This document shows positions 52,120-54,048 of a DNA stretch of 64,000 bases, piece after piece. The notes below the pieces were generated by a model. It saw only the letters and a list, made by a program, of their open reading frames with translations. It made no database searches and was not told the origin of the DNA. Both the position numbers and the translations under genes were made by a program. Numbering within the stretch: position 1 is the first letter of the stretch; each line of letters starts with the position of its first letter. Origin of the DNA: a virus; IMG/VR virus record IMGVR_UViG_3300016657_000129, positions 9,346-73,345 of that record. One strand, 5' to 3'.

Positions 52120-53838
52120 CTAAAGCTGGATTTCTTCTACTTTGAAAATCAACCCGTTCTCGTCGCGATAAAGTTCGTATTCCTTCTCGCAAACCTTGCC
52201 CTCCTTTTGCTCAGTTAACGGCGAAGCATATGATTCTGCTCTGATTTGAACCGAGCGATCGCGTCGGTAGATCGGATCTGCGAGCATGTCGTTTAGCAGA
52301 TCGATCGGCGATTTTTGAGGAGCGCGGACAATTCGACGACCAACGCGATCGCCTACTGGCTTCATCTCCCTCGCCTCTGCCAAACCGTTGACGCGCTTGA
52401 GTAAATCTTTCGGCGGTGGCACAGATTCAACTTGTGCGGGTTTATAGGGTCTGTAAGCGTCTCCACTTTCCGTTTGACCATATGCATCCCTTGGTGCGTC
52501 TGCCACCGCTTGTTGAGGCGGATAAGCGCCACTGGAGAGATATTCTTGTTCGACATGGGAGTCCCGATCCGCGATCGCGTCCCAATCCGGTTCCGCTGGC
52601 AACGCGACAGGGGAGTCTGCTGCGTCCAGCGGATGATGACTTGGATCGAACTGCCTAGAGGCTAAGTCAATCAAGTCCTGCGCTACTTCGTGGGTGGCTT
52701 GCGGGGATGGGTTAGTCAATGCGCGTTGGTGCTTCTCCACGAGTTGTTTGTGTTCTTGCACTGCTGTGCCAGATATGCCCGCGCGTTCCTGAACCGCTAC
52801 ATTTGCAGCGCGATGAGTCATCTCCTCGGTGTACCAAGTCCAATCCAGCGCTAAGCGCGTCGGATCGTTGTTCCACGACCCGCGCACGCGGCGCTTCGCT
52901 TCATGGATGTTCGTCCCCCATCCGTTCTTGAGGTAGTTTTTTCCCATCCACTCAAGGAAGTTTTTGTCGATCTGCCCATCAACCATCCATTCGCCGTCAG
53001 GAAACCCGTTCGCCCGCTCCCTAGCGATCGCCAATCCACTGCGCTGATTCCCAAACGGCTCTATCGCAGTCGTAGCCGGAACAACTTCGACCTGGCGCGG
53101 CGGAACTTTTGCCTCCGGAAGGATCTTTGGTTCCTGGGCGAGATTTTGTTTTTCTCGATCAACGAAGCGAGATGATTCTGGTTGCCCAACCTCTGCCGTA
53201 GCGAGTGGCTTTTCTTCTTCCAAAAGCGCAGCGCTCCCCTCCTCTTTTTTTTCTTCCGCCCCTTGGGGGGTAAGGGGGGAAAAGTATTCTCTGTTTGTAT
53301 TCTCTGGAGTAGTCTCTGGAATATATAAGGATATATTGGCAGGATCTGCCTGTACATAATGCTCGATCGCGCCATTATGTAATCCTGTTTTCTGCCTGTC
53401 CATATTGGCGGTTTCTGCCAATATTGATTGCTCGGTTTTTGGATCGTCGCCAGAGGATTTTTTCCTTTTCCACGCTGGGGGGACTTCCGCGATCGCGGTT
53501 GGAACTCCCTGTAAATACTCCTGCCAACGCGCCTCTAGCGCATCATCGATCAATAGGTACTCCAAGCGTCGGGGGCAACCAGCAAAGCGCTCCTGGATTA
53601 AGCCTCTTGCTTTGAGGTCTTTACGCGCGGATTCCTGCTCTCTCCGCCCCATGCCCGTCTCCTCCTGGATTTCTGCCTGCGACTTAAAGATCCATCCATC
53701 TGGATCTTTTTGCTTGCCTTGCCAGTAATACATTTGACAAAGAAATAAGCATGGAAGTACGCCCCCCACGACTTTTACCAGGGAAGGATAGTAGGCGATA
53801 GGATGGCCTAAGTTTTTAAGGAAAAGACCCAGTTTCAT
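52120..53838 (-). CDS. phage replication initiator (replisome-organiser-like N-terminal wHTH)
   Basis: PIAYYPSL..LFLCQMYYW..DGWIFKSQAEIQEETGMGRREQESARKDL. Confidence 0.8.
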   Translation of the reverse strand: MKLGLFLKNLGHPIAYYPSLVKVVGGVLPCLFLCQMYYWQGKQKDPDGWIFKSQAEIQEETGMGRREQESARKDLKARGLIQERFAGCPRRLEYLLIDDALEARWQEYLQGVPTAIAEVPPAWKRKKSSGDDPKTEQSILAETANMDRQKTGLHNGAIEHYVQADPANISLYIPETTPENTNREYFSPLTPQGAEEKKEEGSAALLEEEKPLATAEVGQPESSRFVDREKQNLAQEPKILPEAKVPPRQVEVVPATTAIEPFGNQRSGLAIARERANGFPDGEWMVDGQIDKNFLEWMGKNYLKNGWGTNIHEAKRRVRGSWNNDPTRLALDWTWYTEEMTHRAANVAVQERAGISGTAVQEHKQLVEKHQRALTNPSPQATHEVAQDLIDLASRQFDPSHHPLDAADSPVALPAEPDWDAIADRDSHVEQEYLSSGAYPPQQAVADAPRDAYGQTESGDAYRPYKPAQVESVPPPKDLLKRVNGLAEAREMKPVGDRVGRRIVRAPQKSPIDLLNDMLADPIYRRDRSVQIRAESYASPLTEQKEGKVCEKEYELYRDENGLIFKVEEIQL

Positions 53839-53840
53839 GC

Positions 53841-53870
53841 TCTTACTCCCTCGCTTCGGCAGGAGTAAGA
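53841..53870 (-). promoter_or_regulatory. hairpin sequestering the Shine-Dalgarno of the replication initiator
   Basis: 9-bp stem TCTTACTCC / GGAGTAAGA ending 2 nt before the ATG at 53838. Confidence 0.6.
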
Positions 53871-53962
53871 CAAAAGCGTGCTATAATCATCGCTATTAGT
53901 CATAAGTGTTACAGCAAACGTTTGCTTGCAAGATGTGACTTAAGTAAGGAAAGTTGAATCAA

Positions 53963-54048
53963 AGTTGAATTGAGCGCTCCCTTCTTGCAGGAAGGGGGCG
54001 CACCTTTTTTAAGGGTGCTGGTTCTCATTGTATCAGCGTATTAATGAA
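53963..54048. repeat. copy 1 of an ~85-bp duplicated hairpin/promoter element
   Basis: Clearly similar to 55712-55798; 11-bp stem 53974-54001 then ACCTTTTTT; minus-strand TGATACAAT at 54035-54027. Confidence 0.75.

Follow-up and report, generated by a model that had tools for sequence, protein, structure and literature searches.

Two predicted cis-antisense RNAs, one opposite a replication initiator gene and the other opposite a helicase gene, probably repress both genes through a shared control module in the phage described here. The sequence analysed is a stretch of 64,000 nucleotides (nt), hereafter the window, which spans positions 9346–73345 of the 86,997-bp IMG/VR virus record IMGVR_UViG_3300016657_000129 (the 87-kb contig). 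The locus studied is the 252-nt gap between two minus-strand genes, a 572-residue open reading frame (ORF) that we call rep (52120–53838) and a superfamily 2 (SF2) helicase gene (54091 to ~55683). The control cassette is duplicated, standing once before the initiator gene and once before the helicase gene, and antisense control of both genes is well supported in silico.

The cassette has three elements: a sense extended −10 site (TGATAsAAT), a strong terminator on the plus strand just downstream of it, and an extended −10 on the plus strand 51–86 nt before the terminator stem. On the rep side, the sense promoter is the minus-strand extended −10 TGATACAAT at 54035–54027. Its transcription start site (TSS) would lie near 54020, giving a leader of ~182 nt to the rep ATG at 53838, close to the ~180 nt of an earlier first-pass annotation of this DNA. 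The antisense promoter is the plus-strand extended −10 TGCTATAAT at 53879–53887, found where that annotation had placed it. The putative intrinsic terminator of the antisense RNA (53974–54010, plus strand) consists of a G+C-rich stem of 11–12 bp followed by ACC and a T6 tract; the stem occupies 53974–54001 and the T tract 54005–54010, and our scanner counted 12 pairs, 8 of them G-C, where the annotation had given 11 bp. This stem is more stable on the plus strand (−21.5 kcal/mol) than on the minus strand (−16.5 kcal/mol). The predicted antisense RNA is thus ~117 nt long (53894–54011) and comprises a 5′ stem-loop, a spacer with AAGUUGA repeats and the terminator. Its minimum free energy is −36 to −41 kcal/mol (z about −3), mostly contributed by the terminator.

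The helicase gene (ResIII and Helicase_C domains, minus strand, stop at 54091) carries the second copy. Translation most likely starts at ATG 55683–55681 rather than at the GTG 55752 chosen by the ORF tool, because the RGYQ helicase motif follows the ATG and the GTG falls within the hairpin. The sense promoter, TGATAGAAT at 55776–55784 on the minus strand, is a paralogue of TGATACAAT. A plus-strand extended −10, TGCTACAAT, lies at 55662–55670, and the terminator at 55723–55759 (stem 55723–55750, then T6) is a paralogue of the rep-side terminator with its G·U pair at another position in the stem. The predicted antisense RNA (~83 nt, 55678–55760) would begin a few bases inside the coding region, its 5′ end spanning the start codon. 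A 102-nt block that contains the sense extended −10 and the hairpin is 78% identical between the two places (53968–54069 and 55717–55818). Beyond the hairpin the leaders of rep and the helicase gene are unrelated, yet each has an extended −10 on the plus strand. A 37-nt pattern describing the terminator matched only these two cassettes in the window and had no match in 100 shuffles. Of the 12 sites of the form TGNTANAAT in the 87-kb contig, both strands counted, four fall within the two cassettes.

For comparison, four loci (L068–L071) were obtained from a DNA-pattern scan of metagenome contigs, and five cassette sequences were aligned. L068, L069 and L070 represent one variant and L071 a third. 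The helicase gene and both modules are kept in all four loci at 92–96% identity (92% for L068–L070), and the antisense −10 of the helicase cassette is identical in L068–L070. In these three loci a replacement extends from the rep-side hairpin as far as approximately codon 185 of rep, with homology breaking exactly at 53973/53974 of the window. The C-terminal two-thirds of rep is still ~82% identical across the swapped alleles. One of the two sense −10 forms (TGATACAAT or TGATAGAAT) is retained in all five cassettes. The replaced leaders again carry an extended −10 on the plus strand, TGCTATGAT in L070 and TGTTATTAT in L071 (pattern TGYTAYNAT), located in codons 2–5 of rep, which would place the 5′ end of the antisense RNA of these alleles at the start codon. 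L070 and L071 differ in this −10 by two substitutions, which alter amino acids but hit weakly conserved −10 positions. Altogether, three non-homologous bodies each have an extended −10 on the correct strand, 51–86 nt before the terminator stem. This exceeds chance: the looser pattern TG.TA..AT has 26 occurrences in the 87-kb contig, both strands included, which corresponds to P = 0.015 per 100-nt span.

The block exchanged between lineages (window 53283–53972 against L070 2639–3209, reverse complement) comprises the N-terminal DNA-binding domain of rep (O-like against HTH_36), the candidate origin repeats and the antisense body. The antisense bodies also contain repeats of AAGTTGA, a purine-rich motif. 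Window positions 53945–53972 carry 1.9 copies of an 11-nt unit, AAAGTTGAATC, and three related copies lie at 2133–2190 of L071. Such repeats might bind a protein or offer a single-stranded region for pairing.

The terminator stem also speaks for a plus-strand product. Across the five sequences the plus-strand pairing is intact in 55/55 cells; three pairs vary, each giving G·U on the plus strand and C·A on the minus strand, and one of them reads UA, UG or CG. The stem is ~5 kcal/mol more stable on the plus strand in both window copies, and the T6 tract is invariant. Taken with the promoters, the simplest reading is that the hairpin would serve a plus-strand transcript.

A further common feature concerns the start codons. 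CATAAG, the complement of a CTTATG start, lies 4–13 nt after the −10 in all four distinct antisense bodies. For the helicase cassette and the rep alleles of L070 and L071, CTTATG marks where the gene itself begins; in the window rep cassette it is the start of a candidate leader ORF of 22 codons (MTNSDDYSTLLSYSCRSEGVRA; 53835–53903, minus strand, start codon 53903–53901), which would lie under the 5′ end of the antisense RNA. Because the CTTATG context is common to real gene starts in the other three cassettes, we regard this leader ORF as credible. Its TGA and the rep ATG share bases in the tetranucleotide ATGA, and the reading frame passes through a hairpin that lies wholly within the ORF (53842–53870). 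This hairpin sequesters the Shine–Dalgarno (SD) sequence of rep: the GGAG at 53850–53847 lies in a perfect 9-bp stem (53842–53850 with 53862–53870; −14.6 kcal/mol), as the first-pass annotation had described, and the probability of being unpaired is at most 0.02 for three of the four SD bases.

From these elements we propose the following mechanism. The helicase and the O-like initiator genes would each be controlled by their own copy of one conserved module, in which the sense extended −10 promoter is followed, ~10 nt past the sense start site, by the terminator of a short convergent transcript. A second extended −10, in the leader or the first codons, would fire backwards to give a cis-antisense RNA of 83–117 nt that ends at this terminator. 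Being fully complementary to the mRNA leader, with its 5′ part over the CUUAUG start codon, the RNA would block ribosome loading on pairing and expose the duplex to RNase III, lowering the output of helicase and initiator. In the window rep cassette the masked start would be that of the 22-codon leader ORF, whose reading frame crosses the SD hairpin and ends on the rep ATG; repression of rep may therefore operate by translational coupling, as in IncFII and IncI plasmids, while the helicase gene would be repressed directly.

Several observations weigh against this proposal. Neither antisense promoter has a −35 element. The antisense bodies are no more structured than shuffles (z −0.6 to −1.35), and ~10% of shuffled leaders yield a comparable leader ORF, which makes that ORF weak evidence alone. 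With only three lineages comparable, covariation statistics are weak; the covariation is not significant, with 303/500 shuffles reaching the observed values, and three wobbles on one strand would arise by chance with P ~0.125. A rep homologue on Trichormus plasmid A is without an antisense terminator, though a −10-like site lies on the antisense strand at its start codon.

When viral, metagenome and genome contigs were searched for related loci by protein, none that was close came up, only distant relatives of the N-terminal domain, and DNA-pattern scans of viral and genome contigs gave no match. Among 62 distant O-like loci, a terminator-like site within −300 to +60 of rep was present on the antisense strand in 15 and on the sense strand in 9 (background 7.7%), a weak enrichment for which intergenic position could be a sufficient explanation.

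The same architecture could act without an RNA product. As at lambda pO, the act of convergent transcription may throttle sense transcription into rep and its internal origin, tuning origin firing. The topology is lambda-like, with an O-like initiator, candidate origin repeats in the gene and an antisense promoter at its 5′ end that fires towards a sense promoter ~105–150 bp away; in lambda itself, pO reduces transcription from pR and has an effect on replication that does not depend on oop RNA in trans (PMC3985674). We consider it unlikely that interference is the principal mechanism, since it leaves unexplained both the coverage of the start codon by the antisense RNA and the strong, conserved terminator, and since the helicase gene has the same cassette and no known origin. 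The two mechanisms are compatible and not exclusive. Less plausible still, and in our judgement improbable, is that only the sense strand matters, the module being a shared early promoter with a hairpin at the 5′ end of the mRNA that stabilises it or binds a protein, and the plus-strand motifs being incidental. The conserved block does correspond exactly to the sense promoter and hairpin, the minus-strand hairpin still folds at −14 to −16 kcal/mol, and 5′ hairpins commonly stabilise mRNA. Every variable stem position, however, is a C·A mismatch on the sense strand and G·U on the other, the T6 tract is invariant, and the plus-strand extended −10 recurs in three unrelated bodies.

The first-pass annotation had gone further than antisense control, proposing that the RNA sets copy number and that the phage lysogenises as a plasmid. 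Its antisense RNA has gained from the duplication, from the recurrence of the promoter in non-homologous leaders, from the plus-strand pairing and from the ATGA-linked leader ORF; the copy-number step has not. We think it quite unlikely that the antisense RNA serves to control plasmid copy number in a phage that persists as an extrachromosomal plasmid prophage. In favour of this, neither a tyrosine (PF00589) nor a serine (PF00239) recombinase was found in the whole contig, extending the earlier remark that the window showed no integrase; the contig ends seem to meet within one gene, so that the map may be circular; domains of rep have homologues on cyanobacterial plasmids; and a CRISPR (clustered regularly interspaced short palindromic repeats) array without adaptation genes would suit long residence in a host. 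On the other side, ParB (PF02195) and ParA-type proteins (PF01656, PF13614), which cover known partition families only, are absent from the whole contig at E ≤ 0.1. The contig has no S24 repressor, only three small XRE-type helix-turn-helix proteins, no lysogeny module was recognised on it, and no resident copy of the phage was matched in representative genomes. RNAs of this kind are used by lytic and integrating phages alike: the lambda pO/oop layout belongs to an integrating phage, so finding an antisense RNA ahead of rep does not mark a phage as a phage-plasmid. Plasmid lysogeny is accordingly not supported; of the two genome-level traits that the annotation had named, circularity and par genes, the map may be circular and no gene of the ParA or ParB families is present.

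A more elaborate scenario would make the phage a low-copy episome in filamentous cyanobacteria, with copy number set by twin antisense RNAs on initiator and helicase, a CRISPR spacer against a sibling rep allele acting as a replicon-level exclusion (incompatibility) device, and the block of rep N-terminus, origin and antisense body serving as an exchangeable cassette that sets specificity, with the conserved terminator as its boundary. We offer this as speculation and hold it to be improbable as a whole.

Rep is a reasonable name for the product of the 572-residue ORF. Its first ~150 residues, a phage O-like winged-helix domain, match PHROG 9773 (‘replication initiation O-like’, E 6e-26), and the N-terminus also matches DnaD-like and other initiator PHROGs. 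The tblastn matches of rep include proteins annotated as ‘replication initiation O-like’ or RepO, in phages and plasmids, and hypothetical proteins on pSYSM and on PCC 6714 plasmids. No Pfam family matched at E ≤ 0.001, with nothing relevant at E ≤ 1, and no PDB relative was found. Rep has close metagenomic homologues, the closest of which (P0002–P0009) are 81–100% identical; in some of the close homologues the N-terminal domain is swapped for an HTH_36 domain. A candidate internal origin (53318–53434) lies in the linker-coding part of rep, where repeated and palindromic motifs (ATATTGGC and ACAGGCAGA) adjoin an AT-rich stretch. The repeats are only dispersed in the window allele, while the alternative allele of L070 has 4.7 tandem 24-nt iterons at the equivalent place, directly after the DNA-binding domain; these repeats may act as an origin.

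Some of the cyanobacterial plasmid homologues of the rep domains lie beside DnaB or ParA genes. On plasmid A of Trichormus variabilis (L074, 6001–10019), a 366-kb conjugative plasmid, a homologue with 51% identity over the first 173 residues stands ahead of genes for a DnaB-like helicase, an ASCH-domain protein and a cytosine methyltransferase, a set that resembles the phage's own genes. Plasmid homologues of rep domains do not settle the lifestyle of the phage. In the gap between rep and the helicase gene and beyond, a plus-strand ORF of 42 residues (54044–54172) was rejected as a gene; L071 has a 26-nt deletion inside it.

The CRISPR array (20 repeats, 19 spacers) lies beside a 722-residue Cas12/TnpB-like gene. 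The CRISPR-Cas locus is absent in L068–L070, whose homology with the window stops just upstream of the helicase promoter module (55800–55802), so the array and the cas12-like gene appear to sit as an insertion beside the module. Spacer 3 (window 56099–56133) matches 35/35 bases of the alternative rep allele of L068–L070 (L070 10872–10906), which indicates that the array targets the alternative replicon allele of close relatives. The protospacer lies in the HTH_36-type N-terminal domain, just upstream of the iterons, and is not in the window's own rep allele; its 5′ flank reads ...TTGGTC, with the CRISPR RNA read from the minus strand. The L071 contig (OGWN01000445.1, 1119–2190) is 100% identical over 1119–1857 to the window array (56837–56099) and is joined to a rep N-terminus at the spacer-3/protospacer sequence. 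Probably the assembly fused two sequences through this identity, making the contig a chimera whose left part is unfit for synteny.

The record as a whole is that of a phage, with a Mu-type portal, a MuF fusion protein, a fibre domain and an endolysin; PHROG scans of the flanks gave little else, and blastn against GenBank phages returned no match. HIP1 octamers (GCGATCGC) occur throughout, which points to a cyanobacterial host. IMG/VR classes the record as linear, with a CheckV completeness of 81%. Both contig ends (1–63 and 86977–86997) fall inside a repeat of the GGCTACGGC type, which encodes a protein rich in Gly, Tyr and Asp. The assembly probably broke within this one gene, and the map may thus be circular and nearly complete, which would suit a circularly permuted lytic phage equally as well as an episome. 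A perfect direct repeat of 230 bp near both ends (82–311 and 86073–86302) was rejected as prophage att sites, having no tRNA gene inside and lying away from the very ends, which seem to join within the repeat-rich gene. Neither contig end has a tRNA gene.

Cis-antisense control of replication genes is textbook knowledge in plasmids and is known in lambda; to our knowledge, cyanophages offer few documented cases. Elements of this kind are well known, and what is particular here is the duplication of one promoter/terminator module over two different replication genes. Also particular is that the module appears to be the recombination boundary for a swappable block of rep N-terminus, origin and antisense body. 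A single module used twice would put two replication proteins under gene-specific antisense RNAs, and related phages exchange the DNA-binding domain of the initiator, the origin and the antisense body as one block at its boundary. The cassettes might serve as compact regulatory parts in cyanobacterial vectors. Antisense architecture alone cannot identify a phage-plasmid.

The window rep cassette resembles in design the IncFII and IncI plasmids (R1 CopA-CopT-tap-repA; IncI2 AS RNA-repR-repA), where an antisense RNA of ~100 nt with its own promoter and terminator, here predicted in silico, lies opposite the rep leader. In the tap/repR/repY design of IncFII, IncI2 and IncI1, the antisense RNA blocks a leader peptide to whose translation that of rep is coupled, and IncI2 and R1 offer the precedent for antisense RNA with leader peptide (PMC8053102). 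In the phage, too, the end of a short candidate leader ORF overlaps the rep start and the rep SD is hidden in a hairpin, so that translation of rep would need translation of the leader ORF. Unlike IncFII, the phage Rep is an O-like winged-helix protein and not of the RepA family; no CopB-like second control is evident, the phage is without par genes, and the same cassette also stands on the helicase gene. Rfam gave no match in the window at gathering thresholds, CopA-like RNA (RF00042) included, and no countertranscript family of Rfam matched in 53700–55950 at E ≤ 5.

The origin of lambda lies within gene O. The phage likewise pairs an O-like initiator with a candidate origin inside its gene (clear iterons in the L070 allele, dispersed repeats in the window), and has, where the initiator gene begins, a promoter facing backwards whose short terminated transcript would run away from the gene, convergent with the sense promoter. 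The lambda pO/oop layout is found in an integrating phage and is used in lytic growth (PMC3985674). Whereas oop regulates lysogeny and extends over the 3′ end of cII, the phage RNA would stop ~80 nt short of the helicase gene: the T tract of the rep-side terminator ends at 54010 and the helicase stop lies at 54091, with no overlap with the 3′ end of the upstream gene. In contrast to oop, it would cover only the leader and the start codon, and no similarity in sequence has been shown.

Closest in host are the plasmids pSYSX and pSYSA of cyanobacteria (PMC10899382, PMC9978351), in which the antisense RNA starts just inside the rep coding region, over the start codon and ribosome site. On pSYSX, abundant antisense RNAs start ~25 nt inside CyRepX1 and CyRepX2 and have been proposed to mask the SD and start codon (PMC10899382). 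In the helicase cassette, and in the rep alleles of L070 and L071, the antisense RNA is likewise predicted to begin just within the coding region and to cover the start codon. We found no homology to either CyRepX or CyRepA, and tblastn of the helicase and Rep against plasmids gave no pSYSX match among the matches listed. Both pSYSX and the phage have two paralogous antisense units in one replicon; unlike those of pSYSX, the two phage units would serve different proteins, a helicase and an initiator, from a shared promoter/terminator module.

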